Origin: a phage
Sequence record: OZ556245.1
Length of the DNA: 64,000 bases
Strand: one strand, 5' to 3'
Position 1 is the first letter of the stretch. Each line of letters begins with the position of its first letter. Below the pieces are notes generated by a model, which was not told the DNA's origin, did no database searches, and saw only the letters and a program-made list of their open reading frames with translations. Positions 53,298 through 60,604 of the stretch are shown piece after piece. Position numbers and translations under genes: made by a program.

Positions 53298-54284
53298 TTA
53301 TTTCAGAAGAGTAACCTCAGCAATTTCTTCCCAACCGTTTTTGTCGGTCATAATAAAGTCAGCAAGATAAAGAGCAGTACGCAGTGAAACATTGCGTAAA
53401 CGATTAACATTAACTTTCATCCATGATAATGCTTTATAAGTTTCTTCATCAGAAAGACCGCGCTTTTGCATCATGTCAGTTGAAAGAATAACATCTTCAA
53501 CCCTGACCATAATTTCTTCATTAGTGTGAACACCCAAATCTAAATAAACCGAGCGGGACACTAATGCTTGTAAATGTGGAGCAAGTTTAGTACCACGGTC
53601 TAATTCGCGGTCAATGTCAACGTTTGTGATAAAAACAATCGTTCCTTTAAATTCAAACTCACGCTCAATGCCTTTTTCTTCTAAGTAAGAAGACGCAGTG
53701 CTCCAGCAGACTTTACGGGTCTCTCCAGTGTCCAGAGCGGCTTTTAGAAGATTAAGAATATCCATATCAGAGAAAACATCCACATCATCAATCAAAAGGA
53801 CAGAATTCTCTTCACGATTATTCCAAAGCTGCTCATAAAGACCAATACCAGAGATTTTACCATTAATGCTTTTATATTCAATGTATCCAATATCATTTGC
53901 TTTATTCAAAGCTTTATCTAAAGAATACGTTTTACCAATACCTGCTGCGCCAGAGATAATTAATGAACGAATATTTCCATTAATAATACCATTCGTCATC
54001 ATTCCCATAACATTAAATCTTTTATTAATGCGGGTTTTCATATCTTCATATGATTCTTTAACTTCTTCAACTTTTACACCATCATATGAAATATCTGATT
54101 TGTAAACCCAAACACCGCGACGCTTACCGTCAATTTCAACAAAAACTTTACCATCTCCTTGTGCATCTACCGGAGCATTATCTGGGAACCATTCGCCTAA
54201 GAGCTCAAAAGTTCCAGAGATTTCTTTACCGAAGTAGATACCCTTATTGATAGTTACAGTTTTCATTTTATTCTCCAATTTCAC
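53298..54284 (-). CDS. AAA+ family ATPase (328 aa)
   Basis: Walker A GAAGIGKT, Walker B VLLIDDVD, sensor-1-like FITN. Confidence 0.65.
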   Translation of the reverse strand: MKLENKMKTVTINKGIYFGKEISGTFELLGEWFPDNAPVDAQGDGKVFVEIDGKRRGVWVYKSDISYDGVKVEEVKESYEDMKTRINKRFNVMGMMTNGIINGNIRSLIISGAAGIGKTYSLDKALNKANDIGYIEYKSINGKISGIGLYEQLWNNREENSVLLIDDVDVFSDMDILNLLKAALDTGETRKVCWSTASSYLEEKGIEREFEFKGTIVFITNVDIDRELDRGTKLAPHLQALVSRSVYLDLGVHTNEEIMVRVEDVILSTDMMQKRGLSDEETYKALSWMKVNVNRLRNVSLRTALYLADFIMTDKNGWEEIAEVTLLK

Positions 54285-54335: not shown

Positions 54336-54599
54336 TTATTTTAATGTTTGCCAAATTTTTACTGCTTCGCGACGAGATACTTCTACAGCTCCAAGTTCTA
54401 CGGCTTTTTGGCGTCGGCGAGCATGTAAGTCATAATGTTTAATGCGTTTATCTTGAAACCAAGAACGTTTCATTCCTATTGCTTCTGCCATTTTATGAAG
54501 CTCTTCAATATCTCCATCAGTGAACATATGACAATTTTTAGTTGGATGACCGCGAAGTTTCCATCCATGATTCATTAAAACATCTACGTAAACTGTCAT
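54336..54599 (-). CDS. DUF4031-like small protein (87 aa)
   Basis: MTVYVD...CHMFTDGDIEELHKMAEAIGMKRSWFQ...HYDL pattern; translationally coupled to upstream 49-aa ORF. Confidence 0.5.
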   Translation of the reverse strand: MTVYVDVLMNHGWKLRGHPTKNCHMFTDGDIEELHKMAEAIGMKRSWFQDKRIKHYDLHARRRQKAVELGAVEVSRREAVKIWQTLK

Positions 54600-54745
54600 T
54601 GATTCTGCTCCAAATATGTTTCTATAATTTTCTGAGCGAGATAAACTGCGTTATCTTCAGTTGCATCTTCTAAGAAATTTTCAAAATAAACTGAAATTTC
54701 TTCTGTGTCAATCAACTTTTTTACTTCAATTAACGTAGTTTTCAT
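54596..54745 (-). CDS. small acidic protein (49 aa)
   Basis: hand-translated MKTTLIEVKKLIDTEEISVYFENFLEDATEDNAVYLAQKIIETYLEQNQ; ATG directly after conserved leader GGGGAATAAA; stop overlaps next ATG. Confidence 0.4.
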   Translation of the reverse strand: MKTTLIEVKKLIDTEEISVYFENFLEDATEDNAVYLAQKIIETYLEQNQ

Positions 54746-54777
54746 TTTATTCCCCAAATCCGTATCAGTTGATAGTT

Positions 54778-54809: not shown

Positions 54810-54839
54810 CGTTTTGTGAAAAAATTTTGAAATAAAAAA

Positions 54840-54860
54840 GGGAGCCCGAAGGCTCCCTAT
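54840..54860 (-). terminator. UUCG-tetraloop hairpin after nucleotidyltransferase gene
   Basis: AGGGAGCCUUCGGGCUCCCUUUUUU. Confidence 0.6.
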
Positions 54861-55873
54861 CATTTATAATAACTTCGATGGTTTTCAAGATAAACCCTCT
54901 CAAGGAAGTCATCCCAAAAACACATGTCTACTTTTTGCTGCATACCGTTCTTAGAAGCTTCAATGGATGCTGCTTCTACTTGATCGACCACATCTTCCAA
55001 AAACTCTTGAACAGTTTTAAATGGATGTTTACCCAACTTCACGTCGAGAATAAATGGAGCGTCTTGAAGTGGATAGACTAAGTCACCAGTTTTGTAAATT
55101 TCCAATAGTTGGAGTCCACCACGGCAAGCATGACTCAGAGCTTTCCAGTCAATGCCCTCATTAGCTTCGGCCTTACGAGCGCGTTCGCCGTATTCAGCAT
55201 CAAGTTTATTCAAAGATTGCTTAAGCTCGATAAGAGAAAGCGTTGTTTGATATTTACGACCCAACACGGTGTAGAACGTTTGTGGGCCTGTTTTCTCATG
55301 ATTATGGAATACCCATTCACAGAATTCGTTCTCTGGAAGACGATGCTTAATATCTTCAACTTTAGTTCGACGCTGCTTAATGGAACCGTCTTCTTGGTAA
55401 TCAACCCATTGCTCAGGGATTTGATTAACTACTTTCAATACATCACGTAATGCGGCCAAACGAGAACCCTTAACACCGTATTTAGAAGCTTGCTTGCGAA
55501 CATATCCTAAATAGGATTTCATGTTAGTCGTATAAAAACGAGAACGATTGTCTTGAATAAACTTCCATACATCAGGCAAATCAGATTTAACCACTAGTTC
55601 CGGTGGAGTGTGGAGCATATCCAATGCTACAGTTTCACCATCTGCAGCTAATTTAAAGAAATACTTAAGACTATATAGTTCATGGTCAATATCATCTTTA
55701 GTGTTTTTAGATGATGTGTTGTTAGTGTTTTTACTCATATGCTCTTTAACATTTCCGATAAGAATATCGCGAGCAGGAGGAACAAAGATTTCTTTAAAAT
55801 CTACATCAGATTCTGGAGTAGAAGTTCCATAAAGATGACTACCAAAATAGCTTTTCATTACTGTTTTCATCAT
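54860..55873 (-). CDS. Pol-beta-superfamily nucleotidyltransferase (337 aa)
   Basis: N-terminal GS-x10-SDVD nucleotidyltransferase signature (GSHLYGTSTPESDVDF). Confidence 0.55.
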   Translation of the reverse strand: MMKTVMKSYFGSHLYGTSTPESDVDFKEIFVPPARDILIGNVKEHMSKNTNNTSSKNTKDDIDHELYSLKYFFKLAADGETVALDMLHTPPELVVKSDLPDVWKFIQDNRSRFYTTNMKSYLGYVRKQASKYGVKGSRLAALRDVLKVVNQIPEQWVDYQEDGSIKQRRTKVEDIKHRLPENEFCEWVFHNHEKTGPQTFYTVLGRKYQTTLSLIELKQSLNKLDAEYGERARKAEANEGIDWKALSHACRGGLQLLEIYKTGDLVYPLQDAPFILDVKLGKHPFKTVQEFLEDVVDQVEAASIEASKNGMQQKVDMCFWDDFLERVYLENHRSYYK

Positions 55874-56355
55874 TCAGCCTTATATTCAATAACAGGACAT
55901 ACTTTAGCTTTACGCGCTTTTAAAAATTCGACGATAATAGATTTCTTGGGTTGAATAGGCTCAAGTCCATTTTTGATTCGTTCTTCGTTTTGTACAATGA
56001 GCTCAATTTCTTTATTGAGCTTTCGGTCGTTATATTTGTCTAACAACCAGGAAGGACCAATTACCGCCCCGACAGCAATAAGAACCATGACCGATAATGC
56101 TAAAATGCCTATACCAATTGAAGCCGGAACTAATGTCCATAGGCTACTAAAGACAAAGAATTTAATTAAAATTTCTTGGCCAATTATTGCGGTACCCGCT
56201 AAAGTTGCAAATCCAACAATTGAAACAGCTAATACCGGGAGAAACGTTTTCCAAAAATAAGCACATAACGTTTTTGGACGATTCCATGTGCTGTTAAATG
56301 CCGAGTAAATTTTATAGTGCCAAGAGTTTTCATTAATAACCATAATTATAATCAT
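55870..56355 (-). CDS. integral membrane protein (161 aa)
   Basis: multiple hydrophobic helices. Confidence 0.5.
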   Translation of the reverse strand: MIIIMVINENSWHYKIYSAFNSTWNRPKTLCAYFWKTFLPVLAVSIVGFATLAGTAIIGQEILIKFFVFSSLWTLVPASIGIGILALSVMVLIAVGAVIGPSWLLDKYNDRKLNKEIELIVQNEERIKNGLEPIQPKKSIIVEFLKARKAKVCPVIEYKAE

Positions 56356-56873
56356 CCTTTCATTGAAGGTGTAACAGTTGTTAAATACTTAATCATAGCT
56401 TCAGCTTCTGATTTTGATAATGAAATTTCTCCATTGTTTTGACGAATAGAAATAAAATCCGGATGACGGTCACCACCAGCTTTTAAAACACACATATAAG
56501 TATCAGTTTCATCTTCAATATCTGAAATGATTGAAGCAGTTCCACATGAATGTGGTTTTTGATAAATCAATGCAGCTTTTCTTCCACCGTTTGACTGTTC
56601 ATAAACTTTTAACACATCAAACAAATCACTTCTTTTGTCAATAGCTAAGATGTTGTTTTCATCTTCAATGTTAAATCCTTCGGATACTTCATAAAGTGTC
56701 ACCCATAAATCACCTATATCAATAACAGCGTTCACTTTTCCATGACTTTCAAGAGCATGACAAATTTTCTTGATTTCATCATAACTCATTTTAATAATAT
56801 CATCTCCTTGAATAAGAAAGATGTCATTTTTAAATTCAACACGAATTAAACCGCTTTCACTTGAAATAAACAT
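56352..56873 (-). CDS. hypothetical protein (173 aa), paralog of next gene
   Basis: C-terminal SKSEAEAMIKYLTTVTPSM matches TKDEAIALKTYLDSVIPTM in 56880..57443. Confidence 0.5.
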   Translation of the reverse strand: MFISSESGLIRVEFKNDIFLIQGDDIIKMSYDEIKKICHALESHGKVNAVIDIGDLWVTLYEVSEGFNIEDENNILAIDKRSDLFDVLKVYEQSNGGRKAALIYQKPHSCGTASIISDIEDETDTYMCVLKAGGDRHPDFISIRQNNGEISLSKSEAEAMIKYLTTVTPSMKG

Positions 56874-56879
56874 ATTTCC

Positions 56880-57443
56880 TCACTTTGAAATCATAGTTGG
56901 AATGACAGAATCGAGATAAGTCTTTAGCGCAATAGCTTCGTCTTTGGTAAATGTGACAATATGTGAACGAAAATCATCAATTTGACGAATAGTTAAGACA
57001 TCTCCATCTTCATAGCATTTTGACACATTTAAAACAGTTTCATCATTTTGATCGCACTGATCGCAAGCGTTAGTAATAATAGCATTGCAATTTTTGAGCC
57101 ATTTTAAACTATGTTTTCTTTCATTAGAATAATAAAAATATTTAATCTTATCTATAAAACTATCCCAATGGATAACTGATAAACACATTGACTCACTTTT
57201 AATATTAAATCCTGGACATGAAGAATAAAAATGAATTTTGTGCTCATCATTGATGCTTACTATTTTATCAGTATAAGGATATTCAATTTGGGTTAAATGA
57301 ATGATTTCGCTAGGAGTAAAATATAGCATATCATCTTCTTGTGTCAAGCGATACATGTTATTTACTTTTTCTATAGCCAATTCACCAAAAAGCGGACTAA
57401 CTTCTAATACTAATCGTTTCATATTAATCCTTTTTACTGACAT
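56880..57443 (-). CDS. hypothetical Cys-rich protein (187 aa), paralog of previous gene
   Basis: shared C-terminal motif. Confidence 0.5.
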   Translation of the reverse strand: MSVKRINMKRLVLEVSPLFGELAIEKVNNMYRLTQEDDMLYFTPSEIIHLTQIEYPYTDKIVSINDEHKIHFYSSCPGFNIKSESMCLSVIHWDSFIDKIKYFYYSNERKHSLKWLKNCNAIITNACDQCDQNDETVLNVSKCYEDGDVLTIRQIDDFRSHIVTFTKDEAIALKTYLDSVIPTMISK

Positions 57444-57702
57444 AAATTTGTTCTAAAATTTTAGAGTATTCCTTTGTATCAGATTTACGCACAATCGATA
57501 CGCTATAAGGCATACTATCAGTGTCTTTTATAAAGCGTTCCAAATGACACTCTAACAAAATTTCTGGATTATAAATCGTGTACATCAAATTACCTGTTGC
57601 TCCACGATATTGGCAGATTTCTACTGATTGAGCATCATTCCACAATTTTGTTAAGACTAAATCACCTACTTCTAATTTCGGAAAGCTCACATTATTCACC
57701 AA
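57424..57702 (-). CDS. hypothetical protein (92 aa)
   Basis: ORF track. Confidence 0.45.
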   Translation of the reverse strand: MVNNVSFPKLEVGDLVLTKLWNDAQSVEICQYRGATGNLMYTIYNPEILLECHLERFIKDTDSMPYSVSIVRKSDTKEYSKILEQIYVSKKD

Positions 57703-57877
57703 TTAAAGTTTCAATATAAGAATCAAGATTTACTTTAGCTTCTTCCATAAGAGTTTTGTATTTAATCTTGTTAGCATATCCAGAGAAAGCTGATTCATCA
57801 ATAACTGTTGATGTATGAACAGCTTTACTATACATCTCAATTAATTCTCTTAATTTAAAAGCCTGCTCACTTGTCAT
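57692..57877 (-). CDS. small helical protein, S/T-x-EQ family (61 aa)
   Basis: N-terminus MTSEQAFKLRELIE; early promoter upstream. Confidence 0.45.
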   Translation of the reverse strand: MTSEQAFKLRELIEMYSKAVHTSTVIDESAFSGYANKIKYKTLMEEAKVNLDSYIETLIGE

Positions 57878-58041: not shown

Positions 58042-58215
58042 TTAAATGACGTTTTCAATAAAATTCTGAAGCTTTGTGTGAGCATCAACCATGATTTTCA
58101 TTTCTTCCTTTGCGAAAGCTGTACCTCTTTCCCGAGCAGAATACTCATAGTCAGAAACTGCATTAGCATATTCTTCAATTAGCTTCATTAAAAACATCTG
58201 CTTTTCAGTTTTCAT
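58042..58215 (-). CDS. small helical protein, S/T-x-EQ-like family (57 aa)
   Basis: hand-translated MKTEKQMFLMKLIEEYANAV...; not in track. Confidence 0.35.
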   Translation of the reverse strand: MKTEKQMFLMKLIEEYANAVSDYEYSARERGTAFAKEEMKIMVDAHTKLQNFIENVI

Positions 58216-58399
58216 TATTCCACCTAATCATTTCAAGATATTGAACTAACTTAGCTTTGGATTTATCCAAATCCTTTTTAGTTGCTTCTATACCATCGTA
58301 TGAGTATCCTTCACAATGCTCAACTGCTAATTGGTATGAATCTATTTCAATATCACGTGCTAATTTAATGATTTTTTCAAACTGTTCACTTGTCAGCAT
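58205..58399 (-). CDS. small helical protein, S/T-x-EQ family (64 aa)
   Basis: N-terminus MLTSEQFEKIIKLARDI. Confidence 0.45.
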   Translation of the reverse strand: MLTSEQFEKIIKLARDIEIDSYQLAVEHCEGYSYDGIEATKKDLDKSKAKLVQYLEMIRWNNEN

Positions 58400-58401
58400 A
58401 C

Positions 58402-58605
58402 TTAAACTCTCGTATTATGATCGATAATTTCATCAAGAAACATATCTAAAGCTTCTACAGCATTATTAACTTTAGCTTCAAATTTTTCAATACCTTTATT
58501 TGCAATGCCTGCCGAAAACCAAGCAAAGTCACTAAGTTCCTCATCTGCTTTGCGAATTAAAGCTACCAATTCTTTAATTTTATCTGCTTGTTCAATTCTA
58601 GTCAT
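58402..58605 (-). CDS. small helical protein, S/T-x-EQ-like family (67 aa)
   Basis: ORF track 58402..58641 trimmed to internal ATG ([14 protein letters not shown]). Confidence 0.45.
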   Translation of the reverse strand: MTRIEQADKIKELVALIRKADEELSDFAWFSAGIANKGIEKFEAKVNNAVEALDMFLDEIIDHNTRV

Positions 58606-58866: not shown

Positions 58867-58884
58867 AGTCTCCCGAAGGAGACT
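58867..58884 (-). terminator. UUCG-tetraloop hairpin
   Basis: AGUCUCCUUCGGGAGACUUUUUUC. Confidence 0.6.
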
Positions 58885-60415: not shown

Positions 60416-60604
60416 TTAGTCCTTAGTTAAATTTTCTAAATATGTTTCTAAATCATTTTCAGCTTTATCGATAGATTTTACTAATTCGTAATATGTTTCA
60501 GCATCTCCATAATCTGAAGCCGCTTCAAAAGATAAATCTCGTTCTAAACTAACAATTTCGCTGATTAAAAATCGTATTTCATTCTTTTGTTCGCGAGTAA
60601 TCAT
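60416..60604 (-). CDS. small helical protein, S/T-x-EQ family (62 aa)
   Basis: N-terminus MITREQKNEIRFLISEI. Confidence 0.45.
   Translation of the reverse strand: MITREQKNEIRFLISEIVSLERDLSFEAASDYGDAETYYELVKSIDKAENDLETYLENLTKD

Follow-up and report, generated by a model that had tools for sequence, protein, structure and literature searches.

Two adjacent open reading frames (ORFs) on the minus strand of a T4-like phage end in similar sequences, which raises the question of whether they are related over their entire length or through a C-terminal motif alone and, if they are related, what such a pair of proteins could do. The window analysed here, meaning the whole stretch of 64,000 nucleotides taken from sequence record OZ556245.1, is Tequatrovirus (T4-like phage) DNA, and the locus comprises the following features:

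56880..57422, minus strand: copy 2 ('MobD.1-2'), 180 aa plus stop, ortholog of T4 MobD.1 (Y05I_BPT4)
56352..56873, minus strand: copy 1 ('MobD.1-1'), 173 aa plus stop, diverged paralog
55870..56355, minus strand: small membrane-protein gene directly 3′ of the pair, 157 aa from ATG 56343
54839..54858, minus strand: intrinsic-terminator-like hairpin after NrdC.11 (8-bp stem with 6 G-C pairs, then a T run)
58867..58884, minus strand: intrinsic-terminator-like hairpin after the rI.-1 gene, upstream of the unit that holds the pair

Both ORFs of the original prediction, with 173 and 187 aa, are present on the minus strand as it stated, the longer one most likely being 180 aa. The mechanical ORF of copy 2 (56880..57443, minus strand, 187 aa) begins with an ATG at 57443; the second ATG, at 57422, is most likely the start because it comes after an AAGGA Shine-Dalgarno sequence and after the stop codon that ends the previous gene, and because the product then agrees with the 543-nt gene annotated in relatives. 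A GAGGA ribosome-binding site lies 5′ of the copy 1 ATG at 56873, and the mechanical ORF of the membrane protein starts at 56355. The pair had been described as lying downstream of the membrane-protein gene, which has to be reversed: on the minus strand the pair lies 5′ of that gene by transcription. The transcription unit that holds the pair likely ends 3′ at the hairpin after NrdC.11. The window was also scanned with an HMM in its six reading frames for a third y05I copy, and just these two were returned.

The two ORFs are almost certainly diverged tandem paralogs of the T4 MobD.1/y05I family, judging from similarity that runs through both proteins. BLASTP aligned copy 1 with copy 2 at E=4e-10 (27% identity, 179 aligned positions), and a full-length Smith-Waterman shuffle test gave z=14.9. 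The pairwise alignment proposed with the original prediction might have confined the similarity to the last 20 residues; it did not, because the N-terminal domains alone reached z=8.2 (the observed score was reached in 0 of 2000 shuffles) and the proteins without their last 25 residues reached z=9.7, while those 25 residues by themselves gave z=7.0. Each copy also contains the same two Pfam domains in N-to-C order, PF24449 (T4_y05I_N; 9.2e-34 and 116.5 bits in copy 1, 2.7e-39 and 134.2 bits in copy 2) and PF24448 (T4_y05I_C; 2.1e-23 and 82.9 bits in copy 1, 1.6e-23 and 83.3 bits in copy 2), all above the gathering cut-offs of 24.9 and 27 bits, respectively, and both copies match PHROG 1502. 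The tandem paralogy that had been proposed is therefore borne out by full-length similarity and by shared domains. The shared C-terminal motif is real as well and is the most conserved element of the family; the peptides that had been quoted for it are correct and lie as follows:

56361..56417, minus strand: copy 1 C-terminal motif, SKSEAEAMIKYLTTVTPSM, sharing its alignment columns with the copy 2 motif
56892..56948, minus strand: C-terminal motif of copy 2, TKDEAIALKTYLDSVIPTM, which in the structural model corresponds to helix 160-173 plus the tail

The suggestion of a duplicated module is supported, with the qualification that the y05I/MobD.1 gene alone is present twice and the membrane-protein gene once. 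An alternative in which the resemblance is a chance or low-complexity likeness of unrelated ORFs, or in which one ORF is no gene, has practically no probability left: it is refuted by the BLASTP and shuffle scores, by the two Pfam models found in both ORFs, and by the ribosome-binding sites and purifying selection seen for both, and we found no point in its favor.

Membership in the MobD.1 family accounts for the ancestry of the pair, not for its mechanism. Copy 2 is 85% identical to T4 MobD.1 (PF24449 + PF24448; PHROG 1502) and occupies the same position between the mobD.2/Tudor and nrdC.11 sides, an orthologous position supported by synteny with T4, PST, RB51, Mosigvirus and Dhakavirus; copy 1 shares both domains with T4 MobD.1. 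T4 carries a single MobD.1 gene whereas this phage carries two, and in T4 the HNH homing-endonuclease gene mobD occupies the place taken here by copy 1 and the membrane-protein gene. The distribution among T4-like phages, which had been suggested as a check, is mostly a pair in Tequatrovirus and one copy each in Mosigvirus, Dhakavirus and T4. Most Tequatroviruses have the pair, copy 1 being found at ≥90% identity in ~434 phage records, and the family as a whole is tiny (28 representatives among 1.84 billion proteins) and confined to T4-like phages. The pair was already known, having been sequenced in hundreds of T4-like phages, covered by an existing Pfam family and annotated in RB51 and RB32, where the second gene (copy 1) is labelled 'similar to mobD.1'. 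As such it is of little consequence; what is added is a testable picture of a T4 gene family with candidate Pur-alpha-like three repeats and a motif that probably forms its pairing helix, a small membrane-protein gene as near-invariant partner, and signs of rapid modular turnover (alternative alleles, hybrids, homing-endonuclease replacement in T4, decay in T2). A search of NCBIfam gave zero matches, and PADLOC-DB at E≤0.1 gave no match for either copy, the membrane protein, the Tudor protein, NrdC.11 or NrdC.10; in the literature we found no functional studies of mobD.1, y05I or their Pfam accessions. Copy-2 orthologs bear the RefSeq name 'Molybdopterin-guanine dinucleotide biosynthesis protein MobD', which we rejected, as there is no MobA/MobB-type Pfam or NCBIfam match and the name was carried over from the neighboring gene mobD (mobile endonuclease D).

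The duplication is not recent: the copies have diverged to the low identity given above, and copy 1 branches apart from the clade that unites copy 2 with the single-copy Mosigvirus/Dhakavirus genes, for both domains, in a neighbor-joining tree that was midpoint-rooted and has no support values. This branching also speaks for another origin, in which copy 1 is an old or foreign allele that recombination with a different T4-like phage set beside copy 2, so that the pair would be two alleles brought together and no in-situ duplicate. The mosaic structure of the locus points the same way: one finds breakpoints within copy 2 and at either end of the membrane-protein gene, and the copy-2 N-domain of some Tequatroviruses is 76% identical to the Mosigvirus gene. 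However, a copy-1-type gene was never found as the sole copy in a phage, and a duplicate that evolved fast would yield the same unsupported, midpoint-rooted tree. We consider such a juxtaposition of alleles somewhat unlikely. That both allele types of copy 2 have identical C-termini was also considered as a sign of extreme functional constraint, which was rejected; the identity reflects a recombination breakpoint, because the DNA there is ~97% identical vs. ~57% further upstream.

For the fold of these proteins the copy 2 model was the main source, and its domains were placed as follows:

57114..57422, minus strand: N-terminal domain of copy 2, residues 1-103, two predicted beta-beta-beta-beta-alpha units
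56883..57113, minus strand: C-terminal domain of copy 2, residues 104-180, one predicted strands-plus-helix unit, a putative unpaired third repeat

The AlphaFold2 model of copy 2 (32-sequence alignment, mean pLDDT 86.7) contains three strand-strand-strand-strand-helix units, of which units 1 and 2 are predicted to pack as one PC4-like 'type I' domain. The structure prediction for copy 1 returned the same order of elements, though this model is of low confidence (8-sequence alignment, mean pLDDT 51.9), and it was kept out of the fold search and used for secondary-structure order alone. On the basis of the models, the y05I proteins probably have a three-repeat PC4-like/PUR/Whirly fold, and they fall within the PC4-like fold class (PUR/Whirly/PC4) as described in PMC7549692. 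Pur-alpha (PURA; PUR repeats I-II, with repeat III as the dimerising one) is reported as the sole known protein that joins an intramolecular PC4-like domain to a dimerising repeat (PMC7549692), and the layout predicted here is alike, units 1 and 2 forming one intramolecular domain and unit 3 being left as a half-domain. A viral family with the Pur-alpha layout would be a second example beside Pur-alpha, and the y05I family would be a tractable system for studying re-use of the PC4-like fold. By sequence, neither copy matched a Pfam family of the PUR, Whirly or PC4 type at E≤1, and a profile search of PDB sequences returned no PUR/Whirly/PC4 chain at E≤10 and nothing below E=0.2. Foldseek against the PDB gave just spurious long alignments (Ctf4, Pob3, sliding clamps; TM ~0.19) and was uninformative; against the BFVD viral structure library it returned own-family members alone. 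A literature search linking T4-like phages with Pur-alpha found no functional study. There are hints of an internal repeat in the weak signal from the profile comparison of unit 1 with unit 3 (P=9e-5), the comparisons of unit 1 with unit 2 and of unit 2 with unit 3 giving no similarity.

The C-terminal unit also occurs by itself. Stand-alone proteins of 67-87 aa that consist of this unit only account for ~12 of the 28 family representatives, and the C-terminal motif is the best conserved block family-wide, these proteins included. The shared motif, (F/L)TKxEAxALxxYLxxVIPTM, would correspond to the amphipathic helix and tail of unit 3. A lone PC4-like unit usually becomes complete when it pairs with another copy of itself. 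Since lone units of the fold pair, dimerisation of y05I proteins through unit 3 is to be expected, and we give it an even chance; it would produce homodimers via the C-terminal element and possibly heterodimers of copy 1 and copy 2. The single-repeat PC4-like homodimers (Borrelia Pur-alpha, PC4/Sub1, the phage T5 PC4-like protein) are an analogue of the stand-alone y05I_C proteins and also parallel the C-terminal unit here, as one repeat needing a partner. Whirly proteins (p24/PBF-2, StWhy2) and trypanosome MRP1/MRP2 are tetramers that bind ssDNA or guide RNA by basic beta-sheets; unlike the y05I proteins they are without a third repeat, and they are unrelated to them in sequence.

Given this predicted fold, the y05I proteins could be Pur-alpha/Whirly-like regulators that bind ssDNA or RNA, the two-repeat N-terminal domain holding the single-stranded nucleic acid and the C-terminal repeat dimerising, with paralogs that differ in their targets or heterodimerise as proposed for Pur-alpha and Pur-beta. 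The Pfam label 'putative transcription factor' fits such a role. However, every full-length family member is acidic (pI 4.1-5.8, net charge -3 to -30), the conserved motifs LTQEDD and GFNIExE, of surface type, are themselves acidic, and no basic residue is invariant in the family alignment; judged by composition alone, the basic/aromatic beta-sheet surface with which PC4-like proteins hold single-stranded nucleic acid would be lacking. This acidity speaks against nucleic-acid binding of the classical kind. Acidity is common among T4 early proteins, however, and by itself does not rule out such binding. The regulator role also leaves the near-invariant adjacency to the membrane-protein gene unexplained and has no sequence-level relation to the PUR, Whirly and PC4 families behind it, and we consider it unlikely.

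The neighboring membrane protein matches PHROG 944 'membrane protein' (7e-51) and has a hydrophobic core at residues ~30-100 between conserved ends, MIINxNSWHYK and KARKxKVCPxIEF. Its homolog (~150 aa) directly follows a y05I or y05I_C gene in 28 of the 29 loci checked, which come from Tequatrovirus, Mosigvirus, Dhakavirus and more distant metagenomic T4-like phages, with a gap of ~20 nt or less where measured. The exception is T4, with the mobD endonuclease gene in that place. The adjacency is kept even where other genes part the membrane-protein gene from NrdC.11. These observations suggest that the C-terminal unit cooperates with the ~150-aa membrane protein encoded directly 3′ of it. The probability of such functional coupling is evenly balanced, as the adjacency also fits plain co-inheritance in a highly syntenic phage group, and T4 retains copy 2 without the membrane protein, so that copy 2 may act alone or be a remnant. 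Among the matches listed (120 of 170 homologs), the membrane-protein homologs are all stand-alone proteins of 147-161 aa, and a Rosetta-stone test found no fusions with y05I.

From gene order, composition and population genetics, the y05I proteins may be protein-binding, membrane-associated adaptors, possibly nucleic-acid mimics, with a role in host interaction such as exclusion or counter-defence. An adaptor or mimic is preferred over a DNA/RNA-binding transcription factor because all of the proteins are acidic and none of their basic surface residues is conserved, although this preference is tentative. The best explanation in its entirety, combining the paralogs, the fold, the dimer and a membrane-linked adaptor, is one we favor with moderate confidence. 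A more specific proposal, that these are acidic, virus-specific Pur-alpha-type derivatives that have lost nucleic-acid binding and act as dimeric adaptors or mimics, tethered via the C-terminal repeat to the membrane protein and with paralog heterodimers, in an arms race with the host, is quite unlikely to hold in full. It would accommodate the hypervariable N-domain of copy 2 as well as the alleles of the membrane-protein gene, for example in counter-defence or superinfection exclusion and, if true, such a tethered adaptor or mimic would be a previously unrecognised phage host-interaction module.

The module is accessory and fast-changing, as seen in the T4 replacement, in a T4 fragment from nrdC.11 to mobD.3 that is deletable (PMC9825161), in T2, where all three genes (both copies and the membrane-protein gene) carry frameshifts in two independent records, and in the N-terminal part of copy 2 and the membrane-protein gene, which occur as alternative alleles ~55% identical within flanking DNA that is ~96% identical. 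It would serve a dispensable function, with expression from the early/middle region lying between tk/rI and nrdC. The absence of copy 1 from T4, the loss of all copies in T2 and the viability in nature of hybrids that merge the two genes into one might also mean that the copies are redundant, with labor not divided between them and one of them heading for loss. Yet for all their divergence from each other, the copies are each 92-100% conserved across hundreds of Tequatrovirus genomes, and both are functional genes under purifying selection (dN/dS across 11 phages of 0.14 for copy 1 and 0.26 for copy 2). Such conservation and dN/dS values are unlike those of a decaying redundant copy, and redundancy is therefore very unlikely. 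The natural hybrid genes join a copy-2 head to a copy-1 tail with the frame intact at a 10-nt microhomology, located in the window as follows:

57035..57044, minus strand: GATGAAACTG in copy 2, the hybrid-junction microhomology site
56504..56513, minus strand: GATGAAACTG in copy 1, the matching site for the junction

Hybrids were found on 6 contigs from at least 3 samples, and they show that the C-termini of copies 1 and 2 are interchangeable. In one of them (P0021, loci L030-L032), the switch from copy-2-like to copy-1-like sequence falls exactly at GATGAAACTG.

Both ORFs of the original prediction, of 173 and 187 aa within 56352-57443, are present on the minus strand, and ORF translation reproduced their quoted C-terminal peptides. 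The 187-aa ORF exists as such, but copy 2 (MobD.1-2) most likely begins at its second ATG (57422), giving 180 aa; this codon lies five bases past AAGGA and just past the stop codon of a phage Tudor-domain gene, and counterparts in relatives are annotated as a 543-nt gene. By BLASTP, copy 2 and copy 1 (MobD.1-1, 173 aa) share 27% identity across an alignment of 179 positions (E=4e-10). In Smith-Waterman comparisons against 2000 shuffles, z was 14.9 for the full-length proteins, 8.2 for the N-terminal domains alone, 9.7 without the last 25 residues and 7.0 for the last 25 residues alone. Since the similarity reaches beyond the tail and is not limited to the last 20 residues, the proposed paralogy stands. 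As members of the MobD.1/y05I family, the copies are true tandem paralogs, and chance similarity is excluded. Both match PF24449 (T4_y05I_N) and PF24448 (T4_y05I_C) far above threshold, as well as PHROG 1502, which has no function assigned. Y05I is T4 MobD.1, of which copy 2 is the ortholog (85% identity); in Yersinia phage PST the two genes are named MobD.1-2 and MobD.1-1, and the RB51 record already terms the second 'similar to mobD.1'. Because genes, family and paralogy stand in public databases, the finding as stated is known and ordinary.

The window belongs to a T4-like phage, a Tequatrovirus. The 2 kb surrounding the pair match 550 phage records, with 99.8% identity to Escherichia phage UGKSEcP1 and 99.7% to UGKSEcP2. 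All genes of the region are on the minus strand and follow, in transcription order, as tk, rI.1, rI, rI.-1, several small DUF7438 genes, the Tudor-domain gene, copy 2 and copy 1, a small membrane-protein gene, the NrdC.11 nucleotidyltransferase and NrdC.10. The pair had been placed downstream of the membrane-protein gene; because of the strand, this order is reversed, and the membrane gene (55870-56355) lies downstream of the pair. The neighboring features are:

58884-58867, minus strand, terminator-like hairpin at one border of the block holding the pair
54858-54839, minus strand, terminator-like hairpin at the other border of this block
57692-57877, 58042-58215, 58205-58399, 58402-58605 and 60416-60604, minus strand, small paralogs matching Pfam DUF7438
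57424-57702, minus strand, phage Tudor-domain gene (PF24144, E=1.5e-38; TTG start in the ORF list)
54596-54757, minus strand, 53-aa ORF
54336-54599, minus strand, DUF4031 gene, 87 aa (PF13223, E=1.6e-21)
53298-54284, minus strand, NrdC.10, 328 aa, with the Walker A motif GAAGIGKT

Since the two hairpins bracket it, the block between them is probably one transcription unit. Both hairpins, which enclose the genes from mobD.5 to nrdC.11, are strong and G+C-rich with T runs on both strands, as in bidirectional terminators; a stretch of 6 kb holds nine terminator-like sites, where shuffled sequence would lead one to expect 2.6.

At >=90% identity, copy 1 occurs in ~434 phage records; ~406 carry copy 2 at >=80% identity. 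In Mosigvirus (Shf125875, RB69-like) and Dhakavirus (WG01) there is just one copy, and the membrane gene comes next. T4 differs in having copy 2 alone; where copy 1 and the membrane gene would stand, it has mobD, an HNH homing-endonuclease gene. In T2, copy 2 and copy 1 are frameshifted, as is the 5′ part of the membrane gene, with the same pattern of breaks in two independent deposits (AP018813, L004:1940-3481; PV648364, L033), and the three genes appear to have decayed together. The y05I family has very few members; searching 1.84 billion representative proteins with a profile gave 28 matches at E<=1e-3, and the contigs examined with such matches were all from T4-like phages. About 12 of the 28 are stand-alone proteins of 67-87 aa consisting of the C-terminal domain alone, across which the C-terminal motif first noticed, with the consensus (F/L)TKxEAxALxxYLxxVIPTM, is the best-conserved block.

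The module formed by the pair and the membrane gene is dispensable yet maintained. The nrdC.11-mobD.3 fragment of T4 can be deleted in the laboratory (PMC9825161), and across 11 Tequatroviruses dN/dS is 0.26 for copy 2 and 0.14 for both copy 1 and the membrane gene. Simple redundancy of the two copies is unlikely because each is conserved.

By DNA comparison, the locus is a recombination hot spot. Against RB27, which lacks the Tudor gene, the first three-quarters of copy 2 are ~57% identical; identity rises to ~97% near 57006, holds through copy 1, drops to ~57% over the membrane gene (56346-55930) and is back at ~96% in NrdC.11. The membrane-protein allele of the window is 79% identical to the Mosigvirus protein and ~55% to the common Tequatrovirus allele. 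Within Tequatrovirus this gene (55870-56343, minus strand) has two very different alleles, with sharp breakpoints in DNA identity at both gene ends. Natural hybrids occur on six contigs, where one intact gene precedes the membrane gene; the hybrids switch from copy 2 (nucleotides 1-388) to copy 1 (nucleotide 361 onward) at the common 10-nt microhomology GATGAAACTG (57035-57044 and 56504-56513 in the window). The pair is thereby merged into an intact 179-aa gene on the metagenomic Tequatrovirus contigs L030:3001-3540, L031 and L032. Since such intact hybrids exist, the C-terminal units of the two copies are interchangeable, at least as far as the hybrids go. Neighbor-joining trees, built without support values for the full protein and for each domain separately, place copy 1 outside the clade of copy 2 and the single-copy Mosigvirus and Dhakavirus genes. 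Copy 1 is thus probably an old, fast-evolving or imported duplicate (from another lineage) and not a recent in-situ copy.

The copy 2 model, from a 32-sequence alignment, is good (mean pLDDT 86.7; >90 over residues 1-100, with values of 66-91 in the C-terminal part), while that of copy 1, from eight sequences, is poor (pLDDT 51.9). The former shows three units (residues 3-45, 53-100 and 105-173), each with four to five strands and then a helix, a predicted layout of the PC4-like class, in which two beta-beta-beta-beta-alpha repeats form one domain within a single chain or through dimerization and Pur-alpha is reported as the sole protein uniting both modes (PMC7549692). The y05I model is arranged as Pur-alpha, with units 1 and 2 as the intramolecular domain and unit 3 unpaired. 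A Pur-alpha-like three-repeat fold, with the common motif as the helix of the unpaired third repeat, is well supported by prediction. The motif would form an amphipathic helix followed by an invariant tail; its hydrophobic positions (A, L, Y/L and V/I) are spaced as a packing stripe. Profile comparison matched units 1 and 3 (P=9e-5), aligning LTQEDD..F...E with I.Q.D..V.FTK.EA, which is weak but suggestive; the other unit pairs gave no match.

Pfam describes these domains as 'y05I-like putative transcription factor', and the predicted fold favors a literal Pur-alpha/Whirly-like nucleic-acid-binding regulator. We consider this, the main rival reading, rather improbable, and do not simply adopt the label, mainly because the proteins are acidic. 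All full-length members have a pI of 4.1-5.8 and a net charge of -3 to -30, the conserved N-terminal motifs LTQEDD and GFNIExE are themselves acidic, and the alignments revealed no conserved basic residue across the family, which is hard to square with the basic sheets that bind nucleic acid in the PC4-like class. The linkage with the membrane gene also speaks against such a regulator. Of 29 loci examined, all but T4 (28 loci) have a membrane-protein homolog directly behind a y05I or y05I_C gene, among them metagenomic T4-like phages with NrdC.11 only 62-69% identical; the gaps that were measured are ~20 nt at most. This linkage is kept where the y05I protein is the C-terminal unit only and where other genes stand between the membrane gene and NrdC.11. 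In the membrane protein, a hydrophobic core spans ~residues 30-100 and the ends are conserved (MIINxNSWHYK and KARKxKVCPxIEF); of its 170 homologs, 120 were listed, and none of these is fused to y05I. We favor an accessory host-interaction role, in which the paralogs would pair through their third repeats as homo- or heterodimers, may be functionally coupled to the downstream membrane protein, and would act as an acidic adaptor or mimic instead of binding nucleic acid. The structural reading and the linkage offer a modest, testable lead for an uncharacterized T4 family.

The RefSeq name 'molybdopterin-guanine dinucleotide biosynthesis protein MobD' on many copy 2 orthologs was rejected as a gene-name artefact with no Pfam or NCBIfam support; the mobD gene is a homing endonuclease. 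It is one of several product names that look like artefacts in relatives' RefSeq records, e.g. NC_027404 (L002:5063-5605); others are 'thioredoxin', given to NrdC.11 by some records, and, in the T2 record, 'prohead core protein', 'integrase' and the like. Just upstream of the pair, the DUF7438 array offers another, larger instance of tandem paralogy, with paralogs of 57-67 aa (genes of the mobD.2a/.3/.4 and tk.1 type); one member is labelled 'helicase loader' in relatives with no visible support. The Tudor gene, directly upstream of copy 2, is a presence/absence polymorphism, found in some Tequatroviruses and unannotated in T4. The DUF4031 gene and the 53-aa ORF lie between NrdC.10 and NrdC.11, where T4 has a short intergenic gap only. 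NrdC.10, with sub-threshold Pfam matches only (AAA_14, AAA_22 and novel STAND NTPase models), is an uncharacterized P-loop NTPase adjoining the RlaP-type nucleotidyltransferase NrdC.11.
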